The notes under the pieces: generated by a model | Seen by the model: only the letters and a program-made list of their open reading frames with translations | Database searches by the model: none | What the model was told of the DNA's origin: nothing | Position numbers and translations under genes: made by a program | Assembly (NCBI GenBank): GCA_964016885.1 | Contig: OZ024741.1 | Span: 300,638,001-300,702,000, forward strand | DNA: 64,000 nucleotides | Direction: 5' to 3' | Origin: Eledone cirrhosa | Lineage: Eukaryota | Shown here: positions 7,413 through 64,000 of the stretch, one piece after another | Layout: every line of letters begins with the position of its first letter | How positions within the stretch are numbered: the stretch's first letter is position 1

Positions 7413-7417
<5 letters not shown>

Positions 7418-12108: not shown

Positions 12109-12231
<123 letters not shown>

Positions 12232-12783: not shown

Positions 12784-12851
12784 ATTCTGATTATTACTGG
12801 AATTCTATAAGAATCCAACATCTATAATATTCAACAGGCAAAGGCGAGTGC

Positions 12852-12897
12852 TAAGCTCTGATGATTACCAACGGTATGAAACAGATCTGTCAGCTTA
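12852..12897 (+). ncRNA. Type I hammerhead ribozyme, canonical
   Basis: TAAGCT-CTGATGA-T-TACC-AAC-GGTA-T-GAAA-CAGATCTG-TC-AGCTTA. Palindromic stem III ACAGATCTGT; GUC site after 12891. Confidence 0.9.
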
Positions 12898-13164
12898 TCT
12901 GCCTTTCTTTGTTGAAAAAAGAAGTGACATAGTCACTTCTTTAAAATAATAGCGTAAGGTCTTCAAAATGTTTTTAATTAAGCATACAGTATATTGCAAA
13001 ATATACTATATATACACTCATGTATACATTGCTATTTCAGAGCACCAATTCTAATTTTCAATTTTTGCTGGACCGGCAATCGCTCTGTATAATCAGTTCC
13101 TGATTATTACTGGAATTCTATAAGAATCCAACATCTATAATTTTCAACAGGCAAATACGAGTGC

Positions 13165-13210
13165 TAAGCTCTGATGATTACCAACCGTATGAAACAGATC
13201 TGTCAGCTTA
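13165..13210 (+). ncRNA. Type I hammerhead ribozyme, second tandem copy
   Basis: Same as 12852 with one stem II mismatch (TACC/CGTA). GUC site after 13204. Confidence 0.82.
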
Positions 13211-13300
13211 TCTCCCTTTGTTTGTTGAAAAATAAAGTAAGTGACATAGTCACTACTTTAAAATAATAGCGCAATATTATATACTAATATACAATTAAGC

Positions 13301-14509: not shown

Positions 14510-14514
<5 letters not shown>

Positions 14515-17500: not shown

Positions 17501-18060
17501 AAGGCACGCCAAAGCAACATTTTAATGAACGCGTCTGTTTTCTGTATCAGGAGTTTTAGGTATGTTTTCTTGCTTGGTATGTTCTTTGTAGAAGTATTCA
17601 GATGTTGTTTCTGCATGATGAATATAAGTCAATAGAGTGCTCAACCGAGGGATCTAAATAGTAATAATAATAATAAATTTGAAGACCAAAATCCAAAGAG
17701 GGCTCGATAAGGTTAAATATATATCAATTATATAAGAACCGTAGAACAAATATTTATTAAAATAACAGATTAAAGTTTAAGCAAAGAATCGCTGCTTTCA
17801 CCCTTAACGGGATCTTCTGAAACTAACAAAGTCAATCTGTAAACGCAGAACTGGTTATTTCAAAAAAACGTTGCAACCGGAGGAAGACAGGAAGACGATA
17901 CTTTGGTTCGTGGAAACGTTCCCTGGCAAAGAACGGGAAAAAACGAAATTTGCTCTACGGTTCTTATATATTTGTTCTACGGTTCTTATATATTTGATAT
18001 ATATTTATCCTTATCGAGCGCTCTTTGGATTTTAGTCTTCAAATTTATTATTATTATTAC
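14510..18060 (-). mobile_element. Near full-length Penelope-like element family A (Neptune-like) with direct pLTRs and inverted 5' segment
   Basis: Direct repeats ~14510-14705 and ~17752-17947. 17948-18060 inverts ~17657-17755. Contains the RT+EN ORF and is flanked by (TA)n. Confidence 0.95.
15422..17616 (-). pseudogene. Penelope RT + Cys4 linker + GIY-YIG endonuclease, disrupted
   Basis: ATG at 17616 is in frame with the 473-aa ORF, with a TAA at 17467-17469. Motifs: DKTGNLY, IRLINP, FDINDYYSSI, LYRDDGL, WYNPPY. Frameshift at ~16050-16075, then CNCRNRVDCPLSGKC, NIVYK...YIG and RLYMH. Confidence 0.92.
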
Positions 18061-18096
18061 TATATATATATAAATATAAAAAGCAATCAATGCAAT

Positions 18097-18447: not shown

Positions 18448-21400
18448 GAGAGTATTGAAGTTTGCTTGAAGCATTGTGGAACAATAAGTAAATATCTTTA
18501 AGTCGTTTGGAAGCCTCGACAATGCAAATGGGTAAATCTCCGGGTAACAAGGTCCGGTGGTGGAGAGAGAGATGTAAGTGGGTGTACGTTGAGATGCGTG
18601 GTGTGTATAAGATGTGTAAGACGTGTAGAATGAAGGGAAGAGTATAAAGGATAAAATAAAAATAAGAACACAAGAGAGAGTTACCTTGGGAGAGATTTAA
18701 TAGTGCCTATATATTTCGGATTCACATCCATCAACTGGAGTTTTTTTCCGGGGTGGGGGAAAAGATTGTCTGTCGGACAAGTCCGGAATGCGTTCTTCGC
18801 TGTTTGTTGTTTTGAATATCTGAGGTATTCGGCAGAGCGCGCGTGCGCGTGAAATGGGGTCGGTCATACAGAGGTCAGCGGCCGAATGAGGGAGTGGGAT
18901 GGCGCTAGCTGTCAGTCGATTCTCTGCCTGTTTGTTAAATGTTACTGTGTGTGTGTGTGCGTGTGTTGTTGTGTCGCTTGAGTGTGTGTGCGTGTGTTGT
19001 TGTCTCGCTTGAGTGTGTGTTGTTGCCTTGTTCCTCTGTATTGGCAGTGTAGTATGTTCGAATGGTGGAATGCTACTGTGTGCGTGTGCGTGTGTGTGTG
19101 TAGTAGTCTCGTTAGCATGTGTGTGTGTGTGTGTGTGCGTGTGTTGTGTTTGTTGCATCGCTTGTTAACTTAAACCAGCCATCTCATTTCGCTTCTCTCT
19201 GATCGGTTGTTTATTTGCGGTTGCAGTCGTTTGATAAAAAGCGCTTCGTTGATACGTAACGTTCCGACGTTTCTTTCAGTCGCTATAATTGTGACAATGG
19301 GTCTTCCGTCTTTGTTTCCGCATTTGTCTATGTGTTTCCGGAAAGACGAGTCCCTGGTTTTAGTGTGTTCCTTGATTCGGATGTGCAAAGGTCGAATTGT
19401 GCTACCTATGTAGTATTGGTTGCACCTGTCACATTCTATCTTATACACGACGTATGTGCATAGGCAACAGTTCGCATGGCGTATCGGGCAGTCTCTGAGG
19501 GAGCATGCGTCAGTAGATTTTTCGGGTTTCCTGGAGAGGCATCTTCGCAGGGAGGGGCCCGAGTGGGCCATGTGGATGTCAAGGCCCTCCCTCCGTATAG
19601 CCTTGCGGATAGCGTTGGTGATTTTCTCGCCCAGGTGTGGCATTTTAAGGAAGCACTTGCCTTGGGTGCTTCTGTCTCTTGCGGCTGGTGTCTCCTATTC
19701 TGTCTGTGATCGAATTAGGGTACCCGTTCGTCTCCAGCACCTCGAGGAATCGCTTGGTATGAGTGACACCACTCGCGGGATCGCTGCATCTGTTTTTGAT
19801 TCGCACGATCTCGTTCGTGATGTATCCTCTTTTAGCACTGTTAGGGAGGGCGGACTTGTAGTGAACGAATAGGTCCCTGCAGGCTGCATTTCGGTAGAAG
19901 TTGCAGTGGATCCTTCCCTGTTCCGTGATGTTGATTCGGAAGTCGAGGAGGGCAAGTGACCCGTCTTCGTTGGGGTGTTCAACACTGATGTCAATGTTCT
20001 CGTCCGTGTTGTTGAACGTCTCATAGATTCTGTTCGCCGTGTCTTGGGAAGATGTGAGGATGAGGATGTCGCCCACGTACCTTGAGAAAAAGGCTACGGC
20101 GTTGGGGTGGCAGGCGTTGAGTGCCTTGCGTTCGAGGTTGTCCATGTAAGAGATCGCTAGCACACCTGATAGGCTTGCTCGCATGGGCAATCCCGAGGTT
20201 TGTTGGTATATTTGGTCAAGGAATCCGAAGTAGGTGTTGTCGACGACGATGGATAGGAGTTGGTGGATGTCAGTGGTGGTGAGCCCGAAGCAGTGTAGGT
20301 CGGTGGATTGGACACGTTCCATTAGTATATTGTGGGCCGGGAGTGCCGGGACCGAGGTGTAGAGAGCGACTACATCAAGGCTGAAGGCATATCTGTTATT
20401 CCTTCTGGTGTCGGGATCCATTTGATGCAGGCGCTTCAACACCTCCTCAGAGCTGTTAACGTGTCCCGGCAAGGTGTCTAAGATGGGTTTGAGTATTCTG
20501 GCTAGGAGCCATGAAATTTTGTAGAGTGGTCCCTCCACGCTCGATACGATGGGCCTGATTTTCAGGTCGGGTCCCTGTTTGTGTTTTTTCACGAGGTGGT
20601 AGAAGGCAGGTAGTCTGCTGTTCCTCGTGAGGAGGTTGTATCTCAGCTTCTTCGGGAGCTTCCGCCGGTCGCAGATGTTGGTCCAGGCGGAGTTGATGTG
20701 TTCTTCTATCTGCGCGGGAGTGATTCCCGTGACCTTGGAGTAGAGGTTGTCATCGTCAAGGTGTTGGAGGGCCAGGGTGTTGTAGGCCTCTCTGCTGATG
20801 ACGCAGAATTCTTTTCCCTTGTCGGAGAGGAGATAGATGAGGTTCTTCGATTTTAGGTTGGAGAGAGTGGTGAGTTGAGATTTGGTGAGGTTATGTGTTG
20901 TGCGTGTGTGTGTGTGTTGGTGAAGTATATCCGAGATGGAGTGTTTTAGCCTGATGAGTTTAGTGTCGAGTTCGTGGTTGGTGGGTGGGGGGTGGAGTGG
21001 GTTGTCGGGGTGGTAAGTGGGGAACTTGGGGTGGGTTGCGTCGGCGCTGTTATTTTCTGTGGCGCTGTTGATGGCGGTCACCCATTTAAGTTGGCAAGCG
21101 CCTCAGCAAAAGTTGGCCTCAATGTTGAGTTTGAGTCTGTCGTCGAGACGTTGCGTGACGATGAACTTAGGTCCGAGGTGTAGGAGTTTCAGCTCGTCGC
21201 TCGTGAGAGTGCCGGTTAGGTCGGTGACCAGGTGCGTCGCATCGTTGAGGTATAGCTCGGTGTTGGTGGTTGTGGCGGTGGCGGTTGTTAAGTTGTTGTT
21301 TTCTACGTGGTTCTGGTCCGTCTGTTCATTAGTGTCGATGTTCTCGTTGTGGCGTTTCGACAAGATCCACTCATATTTTTGCTTGAGCCGTATTTTCTCA

Positions 21401-22718
21401 AGAGTGGTAGCACTGGTCGATTGCTTTAGTGATTTTCAGGAGCAAGTCTCCGGGTGCTATTGGCAGTCGATGTGTCCGCTCTGAGAGTGTCCGCTTATGG
21501 ACTTATGGACGTGTAATTGGCGGTTGAGATGTCTCAAGATCTGTTTAATACACGTGCGATGTATGCGGTTAGTGGTGTTTTGGAAGGCTGGTGTACGTAG
21601 GCTTACTGGTAAGCGGATGTTCTTGATGGTGTTGGGGATGACATCGTTTTTTAGGCAGCGTTTCAGGAAAATAATTTGGCAGCCAGCGTTGGCCCATTTC
21701 TCCGACAGTCTAAACAGTTCCCTTACGGATGCAAACAATTCCTGGCTCAGGTGTAAGGATAAGAGAGTATTGAAGTTTGCTTGAAGCATTGTGGAACAAT
21801 AAGTAAATATCTTTAAGTCGTTTGGATACCTCGACAATGCAAATGGGTAAATCTCCGGGTAACAAGGTCCGGTGGTGGAGAGAGATATATAAGTGGGTGT
21901 ACGTTGAGATGCGTGGTGTGTATAAGATGTGTGAGATGTGTAGAATGAAGGGAAGAGTATAAAGGATAAAATTAAAATAACAACACAAGAGAGAGTTACC
22001 TTGAGAGAGATTTAATAGTCCCTATATATTTCGCATTCACATCCATCAACTGGGGTTTTTTCCGGGGTGGGGGAAAAAGTTGTCTGTCGGACAAGTCCGG
22101 AACGCGTCCTTCGCTGTTTGTTGTTTTGAATATCTGAGGTATTCGGCAGAGCGCGCGTGCGCGTGAAATGGGGTCGGTCGTACAGAGGTCAGCGGCCGAA
22201 TGAGGGAGTGGGATGGCGCTAGCTGTCAGTCCATTCTCTGCCTGCTTGTTAAATGTTACTGTGTGTGTGTGTGCATGTGTTGTTGTCTCGCTTGAGTGTG
22301 TGTGCGTGTGTTGTTGTCTCGCTTGGGTGTGTGTTGTTGCCTTGTTCCTCTGTATTGGCAGTGTAGTATGTTCGTATGGTGGAATGCTACTGTGTGTGTG
22401 TGCGTGTGTGTGTGTAGTTGTCTCGTTTGCGTGTGTGTGTGTGTGTGTGTGCGTGTGTTGTGTTTTGTTACATCGCTTATTAACTTAAACCAGCCATCTC
22501 ATTTCGTTTCTCTCTGATCGGTTGTTTATTTGCGGTTGCAGTCGTTTGATAAAAAGCGCTTCCTTGATACGTAACGTACCGACGTTTCTTTCAGTCGCTA
22601 TAATTGTGACAATGGGTCTTCCGTCTTTGTTTCCGCATTTGTCTATGTGTTTCCGGAAAGACGAGTCCCTGGTTTTAGTGTGTTCCTTGATCCGGATGTG
22701 CAAAGGTCGAATTGTGCT
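18448..22718 (-). mobile_element. Penelope-like element family B (different clade, Poseidon-like N-terminus), partial tandem
   Basis: ~950-bp direct repeat, 18448-19408 vs 21764-22718, which includes the end of the EN and the start of the ORF. Both ends abut (TA)n. Confidence 0.92.
19170..21837 (-). pseudogene. Penelope RT + GIY-YIG ORF, disrupted
   Basis: Pieces 21457-21837 (FLKRC..VIP), 21103-21363, 19645-21081 (SDKG, IRPIVS, LDVVALYTSVP, QTSGLPM, catalytic motif as YVGD) and 19170-19643 (VVYKIECDRC..YIGST..RIKEH). Confidence 0.9.
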
Positions 22719-22922
22719 ATATATATATAAAAAACTTATATATAACTGCTCTGTAAAAGAACTGATGTTATTACATTGAGCTATTTATCTTACTGGTAAT
22801 AAGGTAGTAATATATTACTGCCTACCACTATTTAGGGTTTGTAAAAATTTATATAACTACAAAAGGTTTTTGTATATGCATAACCATAAATAGTACCCTT
22901 AATACTATACACACACACACAT

Positions 22923-22972
<50 letters not shown>

Positions 22973-22997
22973 ATATATATATTGATTGCATTGATTG

Positions 22998-23031
<34 letters not shown>

Positions 23032-23034
<3 letters not shown>

Positions 23035-23540
23035 CGGAGAATAGACCGTTAAAACATGTTTATTTAAAATATCACCTACGTACGTTTCGCCCAGTTGGGC
23101 TTCTCAAGGGCATAAATAATCACAAGTGCCCCTTATATAGTTCGGAAAGAGAACTATATAAGGAGCACTTGTGATTATTTATGCCCTTGAGAAGCCCAAC
23201 TGGGCGAAACGTACGTAGGTGATATTTTAAATAAACATGTTTTAACGGTCTATTCTTCGATTATTTACTTTCCCACGTGCTTACGCTCTGCTAACTCTCT
23301 AGCCCACTAAATATTAACACTTCAAATATTTAATACTGCCGGCACTAGTATCGAGCACCTTTGGCATACGCTATATAACTGGTCTGTAAAAGAACTGATG
23401 TTATTACATTGAGCTATTTATCTTACTGGTAATAAGGTAGTAATATATAACTGGCTATCACTATTTAGGGTTTGTAAAAATATATATAACTACAAAAGAT
23501 TTTTGTATATGCATTACCATAAATAGTACCCTTAATACTA
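23032..23540 (+). mobile_element. Fold-back pLTR-like element with HHR in both arms; tail copies at 22737-22907 (+) and 24110-24281 (-)
   Basis: 23032-23141 inverts 23152-23263. The tail is repeated nearby in both orientations among (TA)n. Confidence 0.8.
23181..23223 (+). ncRNA. Type I hammerhead, U3-A8 core variant (mirror copy 23071-23113 on -)
   Basis: CC-TTGAGAA-GCCC-AACT-GGGC-GAAA-CGTACG-TA-GG. Palindromic stem III ACGTACGT. Stem I is short. Confidence 0.72.
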
Positions 23541-23559
23541 CACACACACATACACACAT

Positions 23560-23703
<144 letters not shown>

Positions 23704-23716
23704 CAATCAATGCACT

Positions 23717-23764
<48 letters not shown>

Positions 23765-23920: not shown

Positions 23921-24016
<96 letters not shown>

Positions 24017-24076
24017 TAATTGCATTGATTGCTTTATATGTATATATTTATATATATGTGTATATATCTATATATC

Positions 24077-24109
<33 letters not shown>

Positions 24110-24282
24110 ATAGTATTAAGGGTACTATTTATGGTTATGCATATACAAAAACCTTTTGTAGTTATATATATTTTTACAACCCTAAATAGTGGTAGGCAGT
24201 AATATATTACTACCTCATTACCAGTAAGATAAATAGCTCAATGTAATAACATCAGTTCTTTTACAGAGCAGTTATATATAAG

Positions 24283-24337: not shown

Positions 24338-24434
<97 letters not shown>

Positions 24435-26043: not shown

Positions 26044-26132
<89 letters not shown>

Positions 26133-26209
26133 ATTAAATAAATGGAAACTATATTTATAAAACCATATTTATTTCATTATATATATTTCGGGGATATCAT
26201 ATTAACAAT

Positions 26210-27160
26210 ATGCTATGCCTTCCTCAGACAAAATACAATATAAACAGTGTAAACTCTGTTCAAAAACGTATCTCTAGGATCTCGTCGAATAGAAAGATTT
26301 TCGACGAAAAGGCCCAATACTATAATGAAGCATTAGCTAGAGCAGGATATGCTGATAAGATTGTGTACATAGATAATGATAGACAAACTAAACAAAGTAA
26401 CAACTTTTTTAATTACGGCAACAACCTTAACAACTATAATAGAAAGCATTACAATAATTCAAAAGGCCAAAAAAGAATTAGAACTAGGAACATAATTTGG
26501 TTCCCCCCCCCCCCTTTCTCACTAAACATTAAAACCCACATCGCTAAACTATTTTTCAAAGCTCTTGATAATCGCTTCCCTAGAACACATAGGTATCACT
26601 CAATTTTCAATAGGCATACAATTAAATTAACCTACTCATCCACCAAAAATTTAGCACAAAATATTAATAGAATAAATAATAGGAACTTAAAACCTAGTGA
26701 TAATAGCATAAATAATATACAAGTTAACAAATGTAACTGTAGAGATAGATCTAAATGTCCGTTAAATAACAACTGCTTAGTTAAAAATATAGTATACAAT
26801 TGTAATGTTAATACTGACTATAATTCTTTTAACTACGTCGGTTCCACATCGACGGAATTTAAACTTCGCTATAATAACCACAAGAATTCTTTCACAGATC
26901 CAAGCAAAAAATCTTCAACGGCACTATCAGGCGTACTCTGGCAACTTAAGCTAGATAACGTTAGATATTCGACGGCTTGGAATATAGTCTCAAGAGGGAT
27001 TCCTTTTAATTCATCCTCTGAGACATGTGACCTCTGCGCAGAGGAGATATTCCTTATACTAAAATCTAAAAATTCCCTTAATCTACGGACAAATTTATTC
27101 AGTTGTTGCAAACATAGATTAAACTCAACGTTTAAATATAAATTTAAATTTAAAATGTAG
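26210..27160 (+). CDS. Penelope ORF 3' fragment (RT thumb, Cys4 linker, GIY-YIG), open frame
   Basis: Motifs YYNEALARAGY, RNIIWF.PP, CNCRDRSKCPLNNNC, NIVYNC..YVGST..FKLRYNNH, CDLC, CKH. The first ~13 codons come from the inverted pLTR. Confidence 0.85.
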   Translation: MLCLPQTKYNINSVNSVQKRISRISSNRKIFDEKAQYYNEALARAGYADKIVYIDNDRQTKQSNNFFNYGNNLNNYNRKHYNNSKGQKRIRTRNIIWFPPPPFSLNIKTHIAKLFFKALDNRFPRTHRYHSIFNRHTIKLTYSSTKNLAQNINRINNRNLKPSDNSINNIQVNKCNCRDRSKCPLNNNCLVKNIVYNCNVNTDYNSFNYVGSTSTEFKLRYNNHKNSFTDPSKKSSTALSGVLWQLKLDNVRYSTAWNIVSRGIPFNSSSETCDLCAEEIFLILKSKNSLNLRTNLFSCCKHRLNSTFKYKFKFKM

Positions 27161-28114
27161 TATATTTAGTTTGATTTATATTTATATGGGAAACTAGCCG
27201 ATAAATCTTTGATTCCTTCTTTTTATTCTTTTTATTGCTTATTTTTATTTAAACATTCCTCATGAAAAATTAAGCTACCCTAAAAGCTGATGCTCCAAAT
27301 ATTTTGAATAAACCTTACACTAGATAAACCTTTATATTAAATATAAGAACACATGTAGACCATTTTGGGCATCATAAACTTTTTGAAATGATCTTTGCTA
27401 GATGTGATTTGATGGATAATTTTTGGCTTTGTCTGTTCTTCGACTCTGATGCTTATAATGAACTTGACAATATATTATCAATTAATTTTGAAGGGTTGAT
27501 CTTTGTGGTTTATTTTTATTTTTTATTATTGTGGTATTTTCTAATATTTTTTATTTTTATTTTTAATATCTTTAATATGTAAATTTTTAATATGTAATAT
27601 TTTTAATATGTAATATTCTTTCCTAATATTTTTATTTTTTTAGTTTTCTATTTTTTAGTTTTGTTTCTGATATATATTTTTATTAGTATATTGAAATCTG
27701 CTCTCTATTTCTGCTTGATAGATAATCTTGTAGAGTAAAGACAGGAATAATAATACACATATATGTATACTCAAAGTTTTATACCACATTGAGAATGTTT
27801 TCCGTTAACTTAGAGTTTGCAGAGTTGATCATGTGGATTCACATGAATGTTTGTAGCTATCACATAAACATATGAATTTTTTAAAAAAACTAAACATAAG
27901 ATAATTAATTTTCACACACTATGGATACTTGTCTCATTCAGGAATAATGATATTTACAATATAGTGGAAGTTTTATAAATACTAATACATTAAAACATAG
28001 GGTTTTTACGCCTCGATTATATCTGGCTATTTTTTTAAATTGTTTCTCTCGCTATTTTTTCTCTCTCTATATTCTTTCTCTATATATATATCTCCCTTAC
28101 ATTAATACTAGAGC

Positions 28115-28145
<31 letters not shown>

Positions 28146-28478
28146 ATGTACCATTGATACATTTACTCAACTGACCTCCCACTACCTAATTTTCTATATA
28201 TATATGTATCTATCTCTATTTCCTCTCTCTATATATATATATATATCTTTCTGTTTCTTTACATGAAGTTCTTCTCCTTATCTATCTCTCCATCTCTCTA
28301 CTTTGTTCCATGCATTTCTTCTTTTTCTTCCTTTTCTTCGTTTTCTGTCTTTCTTTCTTTTTTCTCTCTTTCTTTCTTTCTGTGTAAAATTTTTTCACTG
28401 CCAGCTCAACCTCTCCAAATGCAAGTCGGTGTTGTTATGGTATGTCGAATCTATTTATCTATAAAACTGTTTATATTG

Positions 28479-28544
28479 TATTTTGTCTGAGGAAGGCATA
28501 GCATATTGTTAATATGATATCCCCGAAATATATATAATGAAATA
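28479..28544 (+). ncRNA. Type I hammerhead in family E pLTR (inverted copies 24470-24535 and 26170-26235 on -)
   Basis: TATTTTGT-CTGAGGA-stem II (GG..CATATTG/TAATATG..CC)-GAAA-TATATA-TA-ATGAAATA, overlapping AATAAA. Confidence 0.75.
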
Positions 28545-29259
28545 AATATGGTTTTATAAATATAGTTTCCATTTATTTAATATTGTAAATATACTCCAAA
28601 TATTTGTCGAGTGCTTTTATATCAGTTATAAATATTTACTAGTTGTAACCCAACAATTTTAAATATAACTTTCCATATATATATATATATATAAAGCAAT
28701 CAATGCAAATAGCAGTGCGAAAATAGATAGAGAGAATGATAGAGAGACAGACAGATAGTGAGATAGATACATACAAAGACAACCAGCAGGGCTCTCGGTC
28801 TGCAGAGTGCTGCTCTTCGCAAAATCGAGAGGAGTACAACTCGCTTTGGGAAGTGGCTCCATAGGATGGGATTCTTGATGCAGTAGTTATCGCCAATTGT
28901 TCTCCACGGCATTCTATTTTTTCACCAATCCGCAGGCGCAACCTTGTTGTATCATCTAGCCAAAACAGTAGAGGTTCATGCCTTCCTTTCCCACTTTCTC
29001 TTTTATTCTGTTTCTACTTTTTATCATTTCTTGGGTATTACTTGTTCAAATATACGAAATGGTTCGTTGTTTTTTTTCATTGATCGTCATCTACGACACA
29101 TCGTAGATGTCTAGTTATGATGCCCATGGCTCTCGCACTAAGGGAAATACTGTAAATCAGTGAAGGCAATGACCAGCAACATGAATTTATTTAAGGAAAT
29201 TGTTATCGTTTCAGGAAATAATGTTACTGATATGTTATCTAACTGGTCATGTATTGAGG

Positions 29260-39718: not shown

Positions 39719-40838
<1,120 letters not shown>

Positions 40839-41418: not shown

Positions 41419-42367
41419 AGTAATAATAATAAAATTGAAGACTAAATCCAGAGAGGGCTCGATAAGGAAAATATATATCAAGGTATGTATACCTTCTCGT
41501 ACGTATATTTGACTGTTTTGGCGTATAATTTTTACATATTCTGGTATTTAGGGCTTGGTTATGTGTATATGGGAGTTTTGCGTCTGCGTGAGTATGCAGG
41601 TTCGTACGTATGGTGGGTGTGTGTATATGTGTACTTCTTGTTTTAGTTGACTTACGTCTCCGAACCTTCATGTATTTATTTGTAGGTATGTGTGTGCGCT
41701 TGTTATATACGTATTTATTTAATTATATACGTTTATATAATTATTTATTTATTTGTACACAAGCATACACACATACACATATTTATATGTGCGTGGTTTT
41801 GTATACCTATGGTAAGGTTTTGCGTATGCTTGTGTGTGTACGTTTCTGTTTGCGTGTATGTATTTATTTGTTCCTATTACTTTTGTATTGTATTTATTTA
41901 CTTTGTTCTTAACTCTGTAGCGGAGATTCATTCGGTCTCCTAGTTAGAATTTTAGTCTACGACTTCTGCTATACCATTTACGTGGTTTTGTCTTTGCACG
42001 CTATTGTTCTCCACGCTCCACATATGACTTATTATCTTCGTTTTTTCGTTCATTGCCAGAGAACGTCTCTATGCACCACTCAGAGAACATTAGTCTACGA
42101 CCTCTTTTATACCATAAACGTGGTTCTGTCCTTGCACGTAATTGTTTTTCACCACTCCTATTAATGACGTATTATTCGTTTTTTCCCGTTCTTTGCCAGC
42201 GAGCGTCACCATGAACCAAAGTATCGTCTTCCTGTCTTCCTCCGGTTGCAACGTTTTTTGAAATATCCAGTTCTGCGTTTACAGATTGACTTTGTTAGTT
42301 TCAGAAGATCCCGTTAAGGGTGAAAGCAGCGATTCTTTGCTTAAACTTTAATCTGTTATTTTAATAA

Positions 42368-42984: not shown

Positions 42985-46085
<3,101 letters not shown>

Positions 46086-46329
46086 TGACAAAGGTATAAA
46101 CGCCGGAAAGTGTAAAGGTGTAGACGTCAGGTCTTGTATAGTCACATGATTATATGTCCAAGGAGTTTAAATGGCACAATCATCGATCGTGCAGAGATAC
46201 TCAAGATTTATTCCGTTGGTGTGGAGGAGTATGACGAGGCAATTAAGTCCGGACACATCCAGTGTCTTAGCGAGATGACGGTGGCTGGATAATAGTATAG
46301 TTCACAGGTTTTTAATTTTTTAGTCCACC

Positions 46330-47877
46330 GTTTTAGGACAGCCAGGGTGCAGTGTAAAATGCCCTGGTATTATCGTGCCTGGGTATTATCCGGGGTCCAT
46401 CTGTAGAACGACTGCTGTGGTCTATGACCGCAATTGTTGACAGTTTCGGCTCGGCTGTTGAGGAGATCAGGGGGCGCTTGTACGATATAGTAAAGCTACA
46501 TGAGACAGAGCTGGCAGTTCTTCTTGAAGTTGTAGGGTGTTGTGAGGTTAACAATTTCCAAATAAGAGAAGCCGGTGCTAGCATCTTTTAAACTGGTGAT
46601 GTAATTGGTGAGGGATGTAGAGTGCCTTAGATTCCTATTTCTAAAAGAGTGAAGATGCGCTCGACATATAATTTTGAACTAGCCAGAAGTGGCCCCTATG
46701 TAGCATTTGACGCTATTGTGGCTAGTAACTGTACATTTATATATAACATTTCTAGTTAGGCACTGGCCCCGTAGTGGACAGTTATCGGGGTCACGACAAT
46801 TGCAGTGCTTACTATGGTCACCTCGGGACCGGCTGTTGTTAGTACCCACCGCGATACTATTATTAATGTTATTATTATTATCGGAACCACAGCTTCGATT
46901 GTTGTCGTTAGTATTAACTAAGTTAGGGACGCACAGGGTAGTACCATGTGTACGCACTATTGACGTCCGTATCGCAGCCCTCTACCGAACTACTCCAGCG
47001 GCGAGCATGCCGGTTAAGGTTACCACCAACATTACAGGATGCGGCTAGGGAATCGCTAAGTTTATCCAGTCTGCTGTATTCTCTAAGATTGTCTCTGCTA
47101 GGATGCTGTGTGTTAGTGAGCTTGCTGTAGTTACTTATCGCTATGAGATCAGCTAGATTAGGTGTATTTTGAGAAGGATATTTTAACCTTATTCTTATTG
47201 AGGATTTTTCTGTATTTATGGTTGGGTGGGAAGTTTTTATCTAAGGCGTCGAAGAAGATTCTAGGTAAGTCGGAGGCCACACTCCGAGAGTAAGGAGGCT
47301 GGAACCAGAGGACATTACGTTAGCGGTTACGTGTAGCTGTGGGTTTGCTATGGGCTGCGCTGGCTGGGTGACCCTTCTTCTCATTGCTAATATGTTGCTG
47401 TCTGGTGTGCATAGAGTGTGCGGCGTGCCTAGGTGCGCGAGATGTCTGAATGTGGTGGTACGTGTCCTCGCAAGCAGATTAGGGGGTGTAGGTAGTAAGC
47501 CATTACATTTGTTAAGCCTGTAAGCGGGGAATAAACGTAGTAGGCAGCTTGTGCTAATGTCAACCGGACTGTGACACTTTAGTTGCGGTGAACTAGCTGC
47601 CTCACTACCTCTGTAATTCGCGTGCGAGCCGTATCTATTGTTGCGATTACCTATTCTACTATTAGTTACATTAGTGTGGCTGCGGTGCGCTTGGTTATAG
47701 GTATGGCTTACTATAACACCAGTCCGAGATGGGGGGAGGCACGGTCAGCCTTAGGGAGGTAAGAAATCTGTACCTCCCTCTGAGACTCCGACGAGCCCAA
47801 CTTGGGCGTAACATGTGAAAGAGCTCCATATAAATAACATTTTAACGGTCTGTTTCTCTTTCTTCAATTTCTTCGAT

Positions 47878-50255: not shown

Positions 50256-50545
50256 TAATTTATAATTTATAATAAACGAAGCCAAATTTTAGATATTTGA
50301 CTTAATTATTTTACATTACTCCGGAGTAAACAAACCAACCTGCGTACACCGTCGAGTCCTCCAATCTCCATCCTGAGGTATAGGTAAACAAACAACATAT
50401 ACTCAATATATATATTGAGTATATGTTGTTTGTTTACCGACACCTCAATATGGAGATTGGAGCACAAGACGAAGTACGCAGGTTGGTTTGTTTACTCCGG
50501 AGTAATGTAAAATAATTAAGTCAAATATGTAAAATTTAGCTTCGT
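50256..50545. repeat. Tail-to-tail fold-back of family C pLTR centred on (TA)n
   Basis: The centre is TACTCAATATATATATTGAGTA. The arms match 44527-44672. Confidence 0.88.
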
Positions 50546-50563
50546 TTATTATAAATTATAAGT

Positions 50564-52955: not shown

Positions 52956-53304
52956 TGTGTGTGTGTGTGTGTGTTGTGTGTGTGTGTTTGAATTTCTTTT
53001 TACTTAAAAAAAGGGGCTCACGAAGGCTTTTTTTAAATAATATATATATATATATATGTACTTATATTTATGTAAATATGAGTATATATACGTATATACG
53101 GATATATATCTATGTATACGTATATAGTGTATATATATACCTATATAAACGTATAAATGAAAATAGTATGTATATATATACATACATGCACACATATATA
53201 TATATATATATGTACGTATGGATTTACCGCGCATTTATAATGCTCGGTTTGTTTGTACACAAACATCTCGAATTAAGCCGTACAGTGTTTATACTGTGTT
53301 AATA

Positions 53305-54997
53305 CCTTAATAGAACGAAAAGTATTGTAATGCCGTGCACATCCATTCCGACAAAACTGGCAACCTATATCAAGTGGAGCGTAGTACTTACCATCAACTA
53401 CTACATAATGCTGTAACTAAGGATTACCGTACAACTAATCGGTGCGTCATCAAAGAAATCAACGATGCTGGGTTTAAAATCACCTGTGATCTCAACATCC
53501 TGGACCGGACCGAATCTCTGGACCCTATTTCTCCCCACTTTACCCTGAAGGATCACAAATCCAATTTTCCGAACAACCCTTCTATTCGGCTTATTAACCC
53601 TACAAAGTCCGATTTAGGTAGACTTAGTAAAAGGATTCTTGATAGAATCATACCTGAAATTAGAAGTTTGGCCCCTCTTGCACTGTGGAACAATTCTTTC
53701 GCGGTGATTGATTGGTTCAACGGCATATGCATCAAGGAACATTGCCGTTTTATCCAATTCGACATCAAATCAATAATTACTACTCCTCCATCACTTTACC
53801 ACTTCTCCTTAGAGCTATCAATTTCGCTAAAACACTCATAATGGTTAAGGATTTCGAAGTTGATGTCATCCTCAATGCCCGTAAGTCGGTGATTAATTAA
53901 AAAATCCAATAGTACCCCATTCGAGGTAAGTATGGGCGCCAGCGATTCAGCGGAGGTTACTGATCTTATCGGCCTTTTCCTTCTCTTCTCTATCAAGGAC
54001 GAATTCCCCAACGCGGGCGGTGGTTTGTACCGTGATGATGGTACGTATACTTTCTCGTACGTATATTTGATTGTATATCTTATGGCGTATATTTTATATA
54101 TTCTGGTCCATATGCTTTTGGTTATGTGTATAAGTGAGTTTTGCGTCTGTGTGAGTATGTGTGTTCGTACGTATGTACGGTGTGCGTATATGTGTACTTC
54201 GTGTTTTGGTTAACGTAGTCTCCGAACATTTGTGTATGTACATGTAGGTATGTGTGTGTGTTCGTTATATACGTATTTATTTATTTATATACGTTTATTT
54301 AATTATTTGTATACACACACACACACATATTTATATCTGCGTGTATTTGTATACCTATGGCGAGTGTTTGCATATGCTTGTGTATGTATGTATTTGGATG
54401 CTTGTATGTATTTATTTAATTTCTATAACCTCTGTATTTTATTTACTTTATTCTTAACTCTGAAGCGGACAATCATTCGGTTTCCTAGTTAGAATTTTAC
54501 TCTACGACTTCAGTTATACCATTTACGTGGATTTGTCTTTGCGTGCAATTGTTCTCCACGCCCCACATATGACGTATTATCTTCGTTTTTTCCTTACATT
54601 GCCATAGAACGTCTCTATGAACCACCTAAGAGAATATCAGTCTAGGACTTCTTTTATACCATAAACGTGGTTCTGTCTTTGCGTGTAATTGTTTTTCAAT
54701 GCTCCAATTAATGACGTATTATATTCGTTTTTTTCCGTTCTTTGCCAGGGAACGTTTCAACGAACCAAAGTATCGTCTTCCTGTCTTCCTCCGCTTGCAA
54801 CGTTTTTTGAAATATCCAGTTCTGCGTTTACAGATTGACTTTGTTAGTTTCAGAAGATCCTGTTAAGGGTGAAATCAGCGATTCTTTGCTTAAACTTTAA
54901 TCAGTTATTTTAATAAATATTTGCTCTACGGTTCTTATATATTTGATATATATTTATCCTTATCGAGCCCACTTTGGATTTTAGTCTTCTAACTTAC

Positions 54998-55005
<8 letters not shown>
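53305..55005 (+). mobile_element. Penelope family A, internally deleted (RT N-half joined to 3' UTR + pLTR)
   Basis: RT fragments 53335-54040 end at LYRDDG, followed directly by 3' UTR matching the reverse complement of 14510-15390. Confidence 0.9.
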
Positions 55006-55040
<35 letters not shown>

Positions 55041-55046
55041 ATATAC

Positions 55047-55154
<108 letters not shown>

Positions 55155-55183: not shown

Positions 55184-55995
<812 letters not shown>

Positions 55996-56709: not shown

Positions 56710-56845
56710 ATTATATATATATATATATATATATGAAATGGAATAGAATGAAATGAAATTTCATTTCTCACTCTTAGTACGGCACTTACTTAAATGTAAG
56801 TATGTATGTATACGTACATACATATATGTATACAGACGTACAGTA

Positions 56846-56922
<77 letters not shown>

Positions 56923-57370
56923 CAGGCACACATATATATATGTACGTATCAGTTTTAGCGAACATTTATTATAATGTTCGCTTTGTTCGTTTGTAAACAA
57001 ACGGACAGCATGATTTATGCCGTACGGTGTTAAGGCAACCACGTTACCTTTTTGTTCAACACTGACACAGGAACGATGTACTAGTTTCAAGCTTGTTAGC
57101 TATCGTCAGCACCGTATACTCTTCTGCCAGATGGTTGAACGATCGAAAGTATATACTTTCCTTATGAAAATTAACGGCTGAGCAGCCTAATTTGCATATC
57201 GAGTGAGTTCAGTCGGCCAGGCGCACCGAAAACGATAAAATGGAATAGAATGAAATGAAATTTCATTTCTCACTCTTAGTACGGAACTTACTTAAATGTA
57301 AGTATGTATGTATACGTACATACATATATGTATACAGACGTACTGCAGCATGTATATATATATATATATG

Positions 57371-60300
57371 AAATAAAGTTAAATAAAAGTCAAATGATTA
57401 AAATTTAGCTTCGTTTATTACTGCTATATATATTTCAGTGACAGCCATCTTTGGCTGTGACCTCTTCAGGCAGTTTGAATTAGTATGGTATAGACAAGTA
57501 CATATGTTGTTTAGGTGTATGATATTGCCAATACTCTGATATGCTCAGTTCCTTGTTGGGTTGTTAATTCACTGGGGAACTGGAGTCATATGAATTCAAA
57601 CAAACGAATTTTCGTGTCACAGGTCCCCTTCTCCTCTTATTGGTCAGTTATTAGAACATTCCTCATTCTAAGTGTTGTTATTGTTGGAGTTAACTTAAAA
57701 ATTGATAAAATGGTAGAAGGGACAAGGTGTTAAAGGAACAAAATAACAAAAAAAGTGTCAAACTTCCCATTGTTCAGTTCTGAGAGCATTCCTCAGTCAG
57801 AAGTCTATAGAATGCATTCTGTGGTGAGGCTCCCTGTAGTGTTTTTGCCTGCTATTGTTCAGTACATTTGACCTCCACCATTATTTTGGTACTGTTGTTG
57901 TTGTAGTGGTCAGCTTATATCTTGCTGCTGCTAACAATTTAGAAGTATCCAGTTTGTGTTTTTTCTTCATCCCTCCCGCCACCTTCGTAGTGGTGGTGGG
58001 GGGGGGGGTCATGTATATGAAGAAATATAAGGCAATAAATGAAGAAAACAGACAATAAATAAATAATATAATATAATAAAATAATTAATATAATTTGTGT
58101 AATTTGAAAATAAATAAATAAATAGAGAATAAAGAATAAAGAGTAAATGAGAGATTGGTGAAAAAGTAATGATAATGTATATGGAGAAGTGAGAAATAAT
58201 GTAGGATAAAGTGTGTGTGTGTGTGCTATAACCAATCTCAAGGTCAGAATATGTTGGATAGATTGGTATGATACAAGATGTTAAGATGAGATATTCAATG
58301 TGTTTGTGTTATAATCTATCTCAACTTAAAATAAATATAAGGTGATACAGTGAAGAGGGCAGAAAACAAATAACAAATAACAAATAATAAAGAGAAATCA
58401 AGATTTAAGATTGGAACTTGAAAGTCAGAAATCTGGTAAATTAAAAGTGTTTGTGTTATAGATGTTGGCCAAATTATTATGGCTGTGTCCGATTCTATCT
58501 CTAGGCTATCATGGTGTCTGCTCCGCCTGGGTTGTTCCCTGTGGCTTGAGGGAGTTCACAACCTAGGGTGTTGTTATTGCCCATATAGCTTGAGGGAGGT
58601 CTGGCCGAGAGGTGTTTTCATGTTCTGTAGAAGTCCCTATAGCTTGAGGGGAGTTCACATCTTCTTGTGTTGCTACTGTCCATATATTTTGAGAAAGGTC
58701 CCGGCTCTAAGGTGTCTGCATGTCCCGAAGAAGTCGGTTCTGAGGTTTATCAGGCCGCTTCCACCTCTTAGTATCTCGAGGGTCTCGTTCAGGCATAGTT
58801 TGCATATGCAAGATCCCCCTTTATCGGGTGGTACTTTCCTGATTATGTACCAGGCCAGTGAGTATGGGGTCCTGTCCAGCTTAAGCTTCCAGATCAGGTC
58901 GGAGAGAGCTGTGCTTTTCCTTTTGGCCTCCTTCTTGAATGAATGGCGATCGTTGTACCAGCGGTCCTTAAAGCTCGTTGATGTGGCTGCTATGTAGAGG
59001 TGTTCGGAGTTGGGGGTTTTAACCCTACAACCGTACACTATGTTCTTCTTGAGACATTCATTACCAAGGGGGCATGATTCGGGGTTTCTGCAGTTGCAGA
59101 GGGTGGTCGGCCTCTGCGTGCCTAGATTAGGGTTCTCATTATGTGTTACATGTTGGTCTTCCCCCATGCTCGGTGGGGGGTCCTTGGGTCTGTTTGTGTT
59201 TCTTGGGTGGGCTCTGGGTCCCCCCTTCCCTCCTTTCACACGGTTCTGCTGAGTGTTTGTATTGCCATCTTCTGGTTGTGTGTGGTTTTTAAACCTACTT
59301 CTGTTGATGCTAGCTATGTGCTGGGCCAAATTTCTCGTGGTGGAATACGAAAGCTTCACAGTGTGTTTGTTGAAGATCCTGTGGTATCTGTGGTCCCTCG
59401 GGAAGCATTTGTCAAGTGCTCCAAAGAATAATCGGGCCAAGCTTTTCTTTAGGGCCGCTAAGTAGGGTGGGCTGTACCACGTGATTTGTCGGTGTCTCCT
59501 CCTATATGTGTGGGTTGGGGGCTTCGTGATTTGTTGGAGATTTGTTGGGTTGCTGGTGGTTTCCGCACAGTTGCTTCCCTTTTGGGCTCTATACTTTTTG
59601 TTATCTTCGCGGCCCGGATTTGTGGGGTGGTTGTTGTTCGCCCCGGGAGATCCATCGTGGGGTGGTCGCCCGTTTCCCCCCCCCCCCCAAGTGTCCTGCG
59701 GTTGGGGTTGTCCGTCCTGGGGTAGTTAGCGTCACGCCTGAGACTGCTACTCATATTGTGCTCCATCTCGTGGTCAAGCGCACTAGTCCCCACCGGCCGT
59801 GTGGTGGTGTCTGGTACATGGTGCCTATTTGATTCTGCTCTGCCTGTATTGTTAGGGTTCGCCCTCCCCCCTCTGGCAACGCGGTTTTGGGTGTCTGTTG
59901 GGCTATCCACCTCCCGGCTTTTCGGACTATATGTTATATTTTGTCCATGTGCCGCCTTCTTTAGAGCTGCGTTGTAATATTCCGCGTGGTTGTTGAATAT
60001 TTCCTTACTTGCGGACAGGCTGGAGATCCTGTCCGAGACACTCTTCACCACTGCCTTGGTTATGGATCTAGGGTGGTTTGATTTGGCGTTAACATATACG
60101 AGTTTCTCGTTGGGCTTGTGGTAGGGGTAGTATTGCTCGGTGTTCAGGTTTAGGGTGGTGTCTAGGAAGTTAACTACCTTCCTATTTGGGTCTATTTCTA
60201 TGCTGAGCCCCTGGTTCTTAAAGAAATGGCGAATACGCCTCCTCATACCCTCCAACATATTGGTACTGTACTGTGAATAGAGCATCGTCACGATATAATC

Positions 60301-61978
60301 CGCCGCCCAGGCAGGGGATTTCATCTTTTATCTGCTTCAGCAGGTAGAGCCCAACCAGGTCCGTTACCTGCGCTGAGTCGCTGGAGCCCATCGTGATGTC
60401 AAAGTTATTTTGCCAATCACTCCTGGTCCAAAGGTCTCCATCGAAGCGGATTAAGGTCTTTCTTGCGGCGTGGAAGATGCTCACCTCCTCTCGGGTTAGG
60501 TCCGTATTGGACATCGCTAAAAATAGGGCCTTATTAAGTACTATGGGTGAGATTGAGGAGTAGTAGCTTGCGATGTCCAGTTGTATAAAGCTGGTCCTAC
60601 TTTTCTCATGCAGTATTTTGAACCATTCTATTACTTCTCTCGTGCATGACCATTGCTGTAATTTGGTTTTCTTCCGAAGCTTGGGCAAAATCCTATCCAG
60701 TATTCTTTTACTGACGATCCCTAGGTCAGATCTGGAGGGGGCTATTAGTCTGACAGGGAGGTCGGACTCAAAGTTTGACTTGTGGTCTTTAAGGGTAATC
60801 CGCGGCTCCCTTGGTTGTTATGGTGCCCTCCTGTCCTCTATGCCGATTCTGGATATAATCCTGTAAGCTGTGGCATTGATCTCATCCAGGGTTAATCCAG
60901 GTGTTTTTTTGTAGCACTTCCTCAGTTTCCTGAGGATTAGCTTATTGTACAGTTCAGTGTTCATGTTGTAGAGGTTGTTTGTTTTGTCAGCATGGACAAG
61001 TATTCCAGTTGTCCCTTTAAGTACTCTAATCCGGTTTCTCAGGTGTCTGAGGTACTCCTGACTTCTGGTTGGGTTTCCGGAGAATTTGAGGTTGGATATG
61101 ATGTTAATCATCTCGTTTTCAAACTCCTCCATTAGTCTGTTGTGGGGGTGGATTCCTCCTTGATCGAAAAAGGTACTCCATTTTTTCTGTGTTTGTAGTT
61201 TTCTGCGTTCCTCTTTCGAAGTGGAACGCCTTCCATCTCATCCTACGGATGAGGGAGTCCGTACTCTTGATGAGATCAATGGTGTATTCTCGTTTATCAG
61301 GTAGGGGGATGTCCTTCAGTGACGCTAAGGTTGCCAGTTTATCCATAGTGACTTAGGTCCGCTACTGTTTGAAGCGCTCAACACGTGTCGGAGCTAGATA
61401 GATTTTGAGTTTATGTTGGTTGTATACCAACACCTCAGTATGCACGCTGGAGCACTCGACGAAGTGCGCAGGTTGGTTTGGTTACTCCGGAGTAGTGTAA
61501 AATAAAGTTAAATAAAAGTCAAATGATTAAAATTTAGCTTCGTTTATTACTGCTATATATATTTCAGTGACAGCCATCTTTGGCTGTGACCTCTTCAGGC
61601 AGTTTGAATTAGTATGGTATAGACAAGTACATATGTTGTTTAGGTGTATGATATTGTCAATACTCTGATATGCCCAGTTCCGTGTTGGGTTGTTAATTCA
61701 CTGGGGAACTGGAGTCATATGAATTCAAACAAACGAATTTTCGTGTCACACGTCCCCTTCTCCTCTCATTGGTCAGTTATTAGAACATTCCTCATTCTAA
61801 GTGTTGTTATTGTTGGAGTTATCTTAAAATTGAACTAAGCTAAATTTTAATCATTTGACTTTTATTTACCTTTATTTTACACTACTCCGGAGTAACCAAA
61901 TCAACCTGCGCACTTCGTCGAGTGCTCCAGCCTGCATACTGAGGTGTTGGTATACAACCAACATAAACTCAAAATCTC
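57371..61978 (-). mobile_element. Near full-length Penelope-like family C (Neptune-like) with direct pLTRs and inverted 5' segment
   Basis: Direct repeats ~57371-57700 and ~61500-61830, each with an HHR. 61836-61978 inverts 61400-61540. Confidence 0.93.
58673..61346 (-). pseudogene. Penelope RT + Cys4 linker + GIY-YIG, frameshifted
   Basis: Pieces with RMRWKAF, ADKTNNLY, LDIASYYSSI, LYRDD, NFLDTTL, CNCRNPESCPLGNEC, NIVYGC..YIAAT and CKLC. Confidence 0.9.
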
Positions 61979-63336
61979 TGTATATATATATATATATACA
62001 TACAGGCACACATATATATATGTACGTATCAGTTTTAGCGAACATTTATTATAATGTTCGCTTTGTTCGTTTGTAAACAAACGGACAGCCTGATTTATGC
62101 CGTACGGTGTTAAGTCAACCAAGTCACATTTTTGTTCAACACTGACACAGGAACGATGTACTAGTTTCAAGCTTGTTAGCTATCATTCAGCACCGTATAC
62201 CCTTCTGCCAGATGGTTGAACGTTCGAAAGTATATACTTTCCTTATGAAAATTAACGGATGAACAGCCTAATTTGCATATCGAGGGAGTTCAGTCGGCCA
62301 GGCGCACCCAAAACGATAAAATGGAATAGAATGAAATGAAATTTCATTTCTCACTCTTAGTACGGCACTTTCTTAAATATAAGTATGTATGTATACGTAC
62401 ATACATATATGTATACAGACGTACAGTAGCATGTATATATACATATATATATATATACATACAGGCACACATATATATATGTACGTATCAGTTTTAGCGA
62501 ACATTTATTATAATGTTCGCTTTGTTCGTTTGTAAACCAACGGACAGCCTGATTTATGCCATACGGTGTTAAGGCAACCACGTCACCTTTTTGTTCAACA
62601 CTGACACAGGAACGATGTACTAGTTTCAAGCTTGTTAGCTATCGTCTGCACCGTATACCCTTCTTCCAGATGGTTGAACGTTCGAAAGTATATACTTTCC
62701 TTATGAAAATTAACGGCTGAGCAGCCTAATTTGCATATCGAGTGAGTTCAGTCAGCCAGGCGCACCGAAAACGATAAAATGGAATAGAATGAAATGAAAT
62801 TTCATTTCTCACTCTTAAGACGGCACTTACTTAAATGTAAGTATGTATGTATACGTACATACATATATGTATACAGACGTACAGTAGCATGTATATATAT
62901 ATATACATACAGGCACACATATATATATGTACGTATAAGTTTCAGCGAACATTTATTATAATGTTCACTTTGTTCGTTTGTAAACAAACGGACAGCATAA
63001 TTTATGCCGTACGGTGTTAAGGCAACCACGTCATCTTTTTGTTCAACAGTGACACAGGAACGATGTACTAGTTTCAAGCTTGTTAGCTATCGTCTGCACC
63101 GTATACCCTTCTGCCAGATGGTTGAACGTTCGAAAGTATATACTTTCCTTATGAAAATTAACGGCTGAGCAGCCTAATTTGCATATCGAGTGAGTTCAGT
63201 CGGCCAGGCGCACCGAAAACGATAAAATGGGATAGAATGAAATGAAATTTCACTTCTCACTCTTAGTACGGCGCTTACTTAAATGTAAGTATTTATGTAT
63301 ACGTACATACATATATGTATACAGACGTACAGTAGC

Positions 63337-63427
<91 letters not shown>

Positions 63428-63843
63428 CAGGCACACATACATATATGTACGTATCAGTTTTAGCGAACATTTATTATAATGTTCACTTTGTTCGTTTGTA
63501 AACAAACGGACAGCCTGATTTATGCCGTACGGTGTTAAGACAACCACGTAATCTTTTTGTTCAACACTGACACAGGAACGATGTACTAGTTTCAAGCTTG
63601 TTAGCTATCGTCAGCACCGTATACCCATCAGCCAGATGGTTGAACGTACGGTGCTCACGATAGCTAACAAGCTTGAAACTAGTACATCGTTCCTGTGTCA
63701 GTGTTGAACAAAAAGGTGACGTGGTTGCCTTAACACCGTACGGCATAAACAGGCTGTCCGTTTGTTTACAAACGAACAAAGCGAACATTATAATAAATGT
63801 TCGCTAAAACTGATACGTACATATATGTATGTGTGCCTATATG

Positions 63844-63941
<98 letters not shown>

Positions 63942-64000
63942 GCTACTGTACGTCTGTATACATATATGTATGTACATATACATACATACTTACATATATA

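Follow-up and report, generated by a model that had tools for sequence, protein, structure and literature searches.

A Penelope-like element with Hydra-type motifs nested in the internal (TA)n tract of a tandem unit with a putative hammerhead ribozyme in Eledone cirrhosa

When a transposable element lies inside a tandem repeat whose units carry the very kind of target that the element uses, does the repeat draw the element in, or does it offer one target among many? The question is raised by a 64,000-nucleotide stretch of the genome of Eledone cirrhosa (assembly GCA_964016885.1, contig OZ024741.1, positions 300,638,001 to 300,702,000 of the forward strand; this whole stretch is the window, and positions are counted from its first letter). 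Here an array of ~450-bp units with a putative hammerhead ribozyme is interrupted by a 4.6-kb Penelope-like element (PLE), element C. The first-pass annotation had proposed that each new unit adds a landing site for elements that target (TA)n, a feedback loop that could build nests and spread microsatellites. We consider it probable that element C, a full-length PLE with Hydra-type motifs and a broken reading frame, entered a unit-internal (TA)n tract by ordinary endonuclease-targeted insertion, and that the array had been laid down earlier by like machinery. This reading builds on the nested anatomy, the diagnostic motifs, the fixed 3' termini at (TA)n of several families and the tandem-plus-inverted layout of the array, all present in the window. 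The insertion is likely an ordinary nesting of known kinds of element, not a demonstrated feedback loop.

Element C (57370–61979, minus strand, in the same orientation as its host array) splits the larger TA tract of one unit, and its flanks rejoin in register. The left half of the interrupted unit ends CTGCAGCATG(TA)8T at 57369, with two substitutions relative to the anchor quoted in the first-pass annotation, and the right half resumes as (TA)9-CATACAGGCACAC at 61981–62011. The split tract is represented by 17 bp on the left (57353–57369) and 18 bp on the right (61981–61998), so that the originally proposed limits of the two halves, near 57369 and 61980 with the element between them, are borne out. 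An uninterrupted (empty) allele would read CTGCAGCATG-(TA)n-CATACAGG. The unit to the left of the element diverges by 3.2–3.9% from the three units to its right, which diverge among themselves by 3.9–5.1%; because the left-to-right divergence matches that among the right-hand units, we take both sides to be one interrupted array.

The array, with a period of 448 bp, occupies 56735–57369 and 61981–63995. Each unit contains two internal TA tracts, the main (larger) one and a second one located after GTGTACAC. In its five intact cases the main tract measures 14, 68, 24, 14 and 84 bp (at 40451, 56851, 62434, 62892 and 63340, respectively). The pattern proposed for intact units, CAGTAGCATG-(TA)n-CATACAGGCACAC, is exact in the three right-hand units; elsewhere it holds loosely, the tract at 56851 lacking the G of the anchor and that at 40451 having a variant anchor. 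The left part of the array (56735–57352, minus strand) comprises a 3'-terminal partial unit, the 68-bp TA tract (56851–56918) and one unit (56919–57352), and adjoins at its 3' end a (TA)n tract (56712–56734) that is likely the array's own target. The right part (61999–63647, minus strand) comprises three units and a 5'-truncated unit, and is followed by an inverted arm (63647–63995, plus strand) that passes through a 95-bp TA tract and ends at the window edge. An older array of the same family (39719–40838, minus strand), 81–84% identical to the main array, has the same 3' terminus at (TA)n. A distant second unit family (55184–55870, plus strand; ~470-bp period, hammerhead core at 55543) has a homologous 3' terminus at (TA)n. 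Its internal tract is unexpanded: the stretch that matches the main tract is a plain purine–pyrimidine alternation, which suggests that the tract may have grown by slippage from a proto-microsatellite.

The putative ribozyme of the unit is a minimal type I hammerhead motif (57074–57115, minus strand), found by pattern and consisting of the core CUGACGA at 57109, a short stem II, GAAA, a palindromic stem III and a 6-bp stem I, with a predicted cut after 57079. The call combines this pattern with stems that covary in the distant second unit family. Rfam at gathering score returned no match across the window, the unit hammerhead included, and the fold of the unit monomer is no better than that of shuffled sequences (z 0.15, single-strand folding) and is not taken as support. 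Canonical cores are kept in two of six cases in the 56.7–64 kb array (57109 and 63614, non-consecutive) and in one of two in the 39.7-kb array. The arrays contain no open reading frame (ORF) of 150 or more amino acids, and the unit is non-coding. A non-coding tandem unit within 150–450 bp that bears a type I hammerhead motif agrees with the definition of retrozymes that lack long terminal repeats (non-LTR retrozymes); two consecutive units with complete hammerheads, by which Li et al. define an 'active' retrozyme, are absent from the main array (10.64898/2026.07.22.740005). Pattern scans for the unit hammerhead and for the tail of element C gave no hits in metagenome contigs, and none in viral contigs. 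A ATGCAAATTAG block lies ~90–100 nt upstream of the hammerhead core in both unit families (57197, 62278, 62736, 63184 and 40732 on the minus strand; 55443 on the plus strand). This block could be a putative small nuclear RNA (snRNA)-type promoter element, for which the octamer ATGCAAAT (57190–57197, minus strand), within the block conserved in the distant second family, is a candidate.

Element C has the organization of a complete PLE. Read along the minus strand, it has a 5' pseudo-long terminal repeat (pLTR; 61500–61833, hammerhead core at 61598) and a ~100-bp tail that ends at 61398 (together 61398–61833), then an ORF for a reverse transcriptase (RT) with a C-terminal endonuclease (EN) of GIY-YIG type (58673–61346), and last a 3' pLTR (57371–57705) that holds a type I hammerhead (core at 57469; fold z −2.58) and AATAAA, and whose tail-less 3' end is joined to (TA)n. 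The two pLTRs, each with a hammerhead motif and AATAAA, differ at 6 of 334 positions. Next to the 5' pLTR, an inverted 5'-truncated arm (61833–61977, plus strand) is the reverse complement of 61400–61544 with 4 mismatches in 145, and ends at the tail terminus. The description of the insert as a full Penelope element therefore stands as regards its length; its ORF is broken by three frameshifts and one in-frame stop. The ORF pieces are colinear with two homologues that have a single ORF (P0003 and P0004). Eight unnamed homologues were recovered. Pfam returned no family for five of the six proteins submitted, including all three pieces of element C, and left the EN undetected; we retain the EN assignment because its position and the homologue alignment support it.

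The motifs of element C are those of the Hydra clade, and not those of the Neptune-like element that the first-pass annotation had named. RWK is present at 61238, DKT at 60988, YRDD at 60295, CxCX5C at 59098, CxxC at 58804 and CxH at 58720. The only match to G.K[FY] falls in a non-coding frame. DKT (as HADKTNN) stands in place of DKG, a string that occurs only inside the EN (58825). The CxCX5C linker reads CNCRNPESC and is followed by the NIVY...YIAAT of the C-terminal GIY-YIG EN, in whose core there is no cysteine pair, so that CCHH is absent; the CxxC and CxH motifs, around the conserved E and N, read CKLC and CRH. The Neptune CX2-5CxxC linker and CCHH were found in no frame of element C, which rules out the Neptune clade by motif. 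In addition, both pLTRs carry type I hammerhead cores (57469 and 61598), and (TA)n adjoins the termini here and in two other samples. In at least 27 contigs of one sample (X1) and at least one of another (X4), further copies of family C run into (TA)n at 61398, and in at least one X4 contig a copy does so at 61498. These are the two termini of the present copy; its ends are therefore canonical, and its use of (TA)n is generic. Read depth is far higher over the unit and the pLTR than over the ORF, depths not being equal to copy numbers.

How did the host arrays themselves arrive? The arrays at 39719, 56737 and 55870, which represent two ~83%-identical subfamilies and the distant family, end at a homologous site before ATCGTTT. 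All three 3' ends run into (TA)n, with AT common to array and target, and TTTAT occurs once per 448-bp unit. This fixed 3' end does not coincide with the predicted ribozyme cut (57079); likewise, the ends of element C are 54 and 156 nt past the cut predicted for it. The main array flips at 63647 into its inverted truncated arm as element C does at 61833, and PLE insertions are described as having this layout of tandem plus inverted arms (PMC8557442). Judged by this common 3' end at (TA)n and by the inverted truncated arm, the arrays look as if inserted by Penelope machinery. We note that the left termini of the array (56735) and of element C (57370) have a G where the internal copy has an A (TATATG, then AAAT), as if a 3' G of the target had primed both by forming a G–U pair. 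At 53150–53330, the 5' end of a minus-sense unit fragment meets the 5' end of a plus-sense Hydra RT fragment of family B, the latter with a 15-bp inversion (53306–53320). It is as if the unit fragment had become the inverted arm of that element; a single RT could have co-integrated the two, or a later deletion could have brought them together.

A sequence of events that accommodates these features can be proposed. Nicked (TA)n would have served as primer on multimeric or circular unit RNA, at the one U-rich TTTAT site of the unit, and a Penelope RT would have copied this RNA as a tandem array, with an inverted truncated arm to close it. The purine–pyrimidine-alternating stretch of the unit may then have grown by slippage to (TA)7–42. 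Element C would later have used one unit tract, both sides of the break being joined to element 3' ends (the tail-less end on the left, the tailed inverted arm on the right), and would have decayed after insertion.

Several points weigh against this account. In the comparison, which covered reads and contigs of 4 of the 12 listed runs, the zones 57286–57379 and 61968–62028, with both junctions, fell outside what was compared; no read spans either junction, and no empty-site joint is among the joints listed for the four runs. Divergence gives no more than a hint of the age order, array before element: a typical pair of units has 17 differences in 434 sites, and the repeats of the element have 10 in 479 (Fisher p 0.12). 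Two unit sense-3' ends, at 63995 (the window edge) and ~53160, lie off the fixed site. The clade assignment of element C is by motif and not by an RT tree. Finally, the unit has no significant similarity to any of six pLTR-like regions of the window (best E 0.09), and this comparison yielded neither a mobilizing partner nor a sign that the unit derives from a pLTR of this window.

The alternative that survives best, although we regard it as improbable, is that elements land preferentially in unit tracts, owing to open transcribed chromatin or to the flanking alternation, so that arrays and Hydra elements amplify each other. Landing on the same strand could, in addition, let an array promoter transcribe the element, whose own hammerheads would cut out unit-length RNA. 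Element C does lie downstream of units on the array strand, hammerhead motifs at 61598 and 57469 bracket its ORF, the octamer block is kept in both unit families, and newt satellite II is reported to have an snRNA-type promoter (PMC2220036). The 16 unit tract pieces of the window account for one full insertion and perhaps for a second, the scrap, and TA is ~2.3 times as dense in arrays as in other DNA. A preference of this kind can be put to counts. The window contains 99 merged TA tracts of at least 10 bp (4053 bp in total), of which 16 pieces (511 bp) are unit-internal; TA tracts make up 13.4% of array bases vs 5.9% elsewhere, or 4.2 vs 1.4 tracts per kb. Eighteen Hydra-type termini (families B, F and C, and a relative of C), listed by hand and leaving out single-copy remnants without a definable end, collapse into 12 events. 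A TA tract lies no more than 8 bp from fourteen of these termini and 13–56 bp from the remaining four, in two of these four across other simple repeats. Only two listed termini, both of element C, touch unit tracts. One event of 12 therefore falls in a unit tract, where 1.5 (by bases) or 1.9 (by tract count) are expected; with the scrap included, the figures are 2 of 13 and 1.6–2.1. Choice of the window for this very event can bias the count in unit tracts only upwards.

These counts show no enrichment of insertions in unit tracts and no sign of preference; against our reading of them, the 12 events were defined by hand in one window, and a two- to threefold preference is compatible with the data. 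Chance alone would give the shared orientation of element and array half the time, the scrap has the opposite orientation, and the ORF of element C is broken. Nor is the unit the sole source of TA tracts. A second non-coding repeat (22745–23032, 23378–23762 and 23925–24272) contains (CA)n(TA)n and a AGCAATCAATGCA module between TA tracts (the module recurs at 18082, 18411, 24323, 25838 and 28695), and Hydra ends at 24433 and 18057 adjoin its TA tracts; because this repeat hosts Hydra ends in its tracts, the supply of TA target is not peculiar to the ribozyme unit. Any insertion in a TA tract, moreover, splits that tract in two. Of the feedback loop first envisaged, what stands is that every unit has TA tracts, that one of them was used and that arrays are richer in TA; a special landing role or a driving of nests by the unit is unsupported. 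Units add TA target passively, at about twice the local TA density. The fullest form of the idea is that the repeat is a Hydra-mobilized retrozyme that carries its mobilizer's (TA)n target: its arrays would enter (TA)n from a fixed priming site, bring (TA)n of their own, draw Hydra elements above chance and lend them an upstream promoter, in a reciprocal loop that seeds microsatellites and builds nests. We hold this to be somewhat more doubtful still than preferred landing by itself.

An assembly chimera, in which the assembly would have spliced a Penelope copy of another locus into the array by way of TA tracts, is very unlikely. Both junctions lie in TA repeats, neither has read support, and the frameshifts in the ORF could reflect sequence errors. 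Such a chimera would need two mis-joins that preserve unit register, strand and array identity; its junction tracts, at 17 and 18 bp, are short, and both ends are family termini known from other samples. Weakest of all, and hardly credible, is the insertion of two separate arrays beside a pre-existing element, each primed at its flanking (TA)n: both flanks are indeed TA tracts, the array family's own target, but the array ends beside the element are exact halves of an internal tract, neither the fixed 3' terminus nor a random 5' truncation, and the left and right units are as similar as neighbours.

Ordinary nesting, the reading that we prefer, combines parts that are individually in print, namely Hydra targeting of (TA)n, retrozymes as dependants of PLEs, stacking in (TA)n (PMC5907723) and microsatellite seeding (PMC3812793); in TA-rich DNA, the published use of (TA)n by Hydra elements is enough to account for the nesting. 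File S1 of Craig et al. 2021 (PMC8557442) gives (TA)n in 26 of its 27 Hydra rows, including that of Hydra-1_Obim from octopus. Element C shares with the Hydra clade described there RWK, DKT, CxCX5C, the lack of CCHH, CxxC and CxH near the EN end, a type I hammerhead in the pLTR, a (TA)n target, a partial tandem with an inverted 5'-truncated arm, and a tail at one end. Its body is ~4.2 kb, whereas Hydra elements are 'generally <3 kb', a general and not a defining statement; the extra length is accounted for by an ORF insert of ~400 bp and a 3' region of ~1 kb. The tail, ~100 bp, compares with 30–40 bp described for Naiads in the same paper, and element C has clear pLTRs and a broken ORF, whereas Hydra-1_Obim is listed without pLTRs.

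The unit resembles the non-LTR retrozymes of animals, which have been proposed to be moved by PLEs (Cervera & de la Pena 2020, PMC7229834; Li, Clavereau & Pollet 2026, 10.64898/2026.07.22.740005), in its ~450-bp non-coding tandem unit, its type I hammerhead and the coexisting PLEs. It departs from them in that its hammerhead is minimal and not canonical, that it has an internal (TA)n, that most of its cores are mutated, and that no match of the unit to a resident pLTR was found among the six regions of the window. In their available parts, the two retrozyme papers base the case for PLE integration on co-occurrence and on similarity to pLTRs, with the mechanism left open, and do not describe for retrozymes an inverted arm together with a fixed 3' end at (TA)n. 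Three arrays of two distant families that stop at one common 3' terminus at (TA)n, together with the inverted arm, are junction-level evidence that PLE machinery integrates animal retrozymes.

Two further systems invite comparison. As in SaTar Mutator-like elements (MULEs; PMC5907723), unrelated elements stack in (TA)n, and flanking tracts persist or expand as targets; however, the SaTar MULEs are plant DNA transposons in non-nested clusters, whereas here a retroelement splits a unit through its internal tract. The locus is also akin to retroelements that seed microsatellites and to the microsatellite-targeting long interspersed nuclear elements Waldo, Mino, Kibi, Koshi and Dong (PMC3812793), in that it combines seeding with targeting; the available part of that paper treats the two separately, whereas both occur at one site here. 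We found no title or abstract on a PLE nested in the internal microsatellite of a retrozyme, coverage being incomplete and absence unproven, and the available part of the octopus repeat paper PMC13282606 does not mention ribozyme, retrozyme or nested. If unit tracts do prove to be preferred targets, they would offer a testable route for the growth of microsatellites and nests in such genomes.

The older array holds the possible second case mentioned above, a 96-bp scrap at 39945–40040 (plus strand) that the first-pass annotation had called pLTR-like and placed in the internal (TA)n. The scrap is indeed in an internal TA tract, although in the second tract of the unit and not in the one that element C uses. 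In support of the label, it has a hammerhead 3' half and AATAAA, and the GAA-ACAA-TTGT-T half is similar to Hydra hammerheads that File S2 of PMC8557442 lists; on the other side, a CUGANGA box is missing, and nothing in the window is significantly homologous to the scrap (the best matches being 13-mers, E 0.18). A pLTR remnant is plausible but unproven. Assignment of the scrap to family C was rejected, its only match being a 13-mer to the tail of a relative.

Other repeats of the window touch on the same families. At the family-C tail end in element C (61976–61979) a short CT run follows, and the copy at 44.5 kb (44481–44521) has ~21 CT units; compound (TA)n(GA)n stretches occur repeatedly, also at 12181, 37021 and 50667, and RT slippage at the junction might create them. 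A second copy of family C, ~90% identical and rearranged, with inversion of its endonuclease part, and two tail fragments from a relative, placed head to head, lie at 44521–46090 and 50270–50551. A short interspersed element (SINE) motif repeated in the window would fit an octopus as host. A different PLE at 18448–22727 has a DKG motif, an RVT_1 match below the cut-off and flanking direct repeats of 956 bp (94%). A near-perfect tandem triplication of 591 bp at 42988–44340 (99.9–100% identical) is either a very recent duplication or an assembly artefact. More remnants of the same Penelope type are located at 7415–9405, 14511–18057, 26130–28586, 41420–42367, 46391–47346 and 53306–55050. The putative hammerhead of family B appears with CAGAAGA in place of the usual core, and other hammerhead-like motifs occur in different repeats at 12787–13274, 39222/39345 and 49012, including a pair spaced by 313 bp and an inverted pair.

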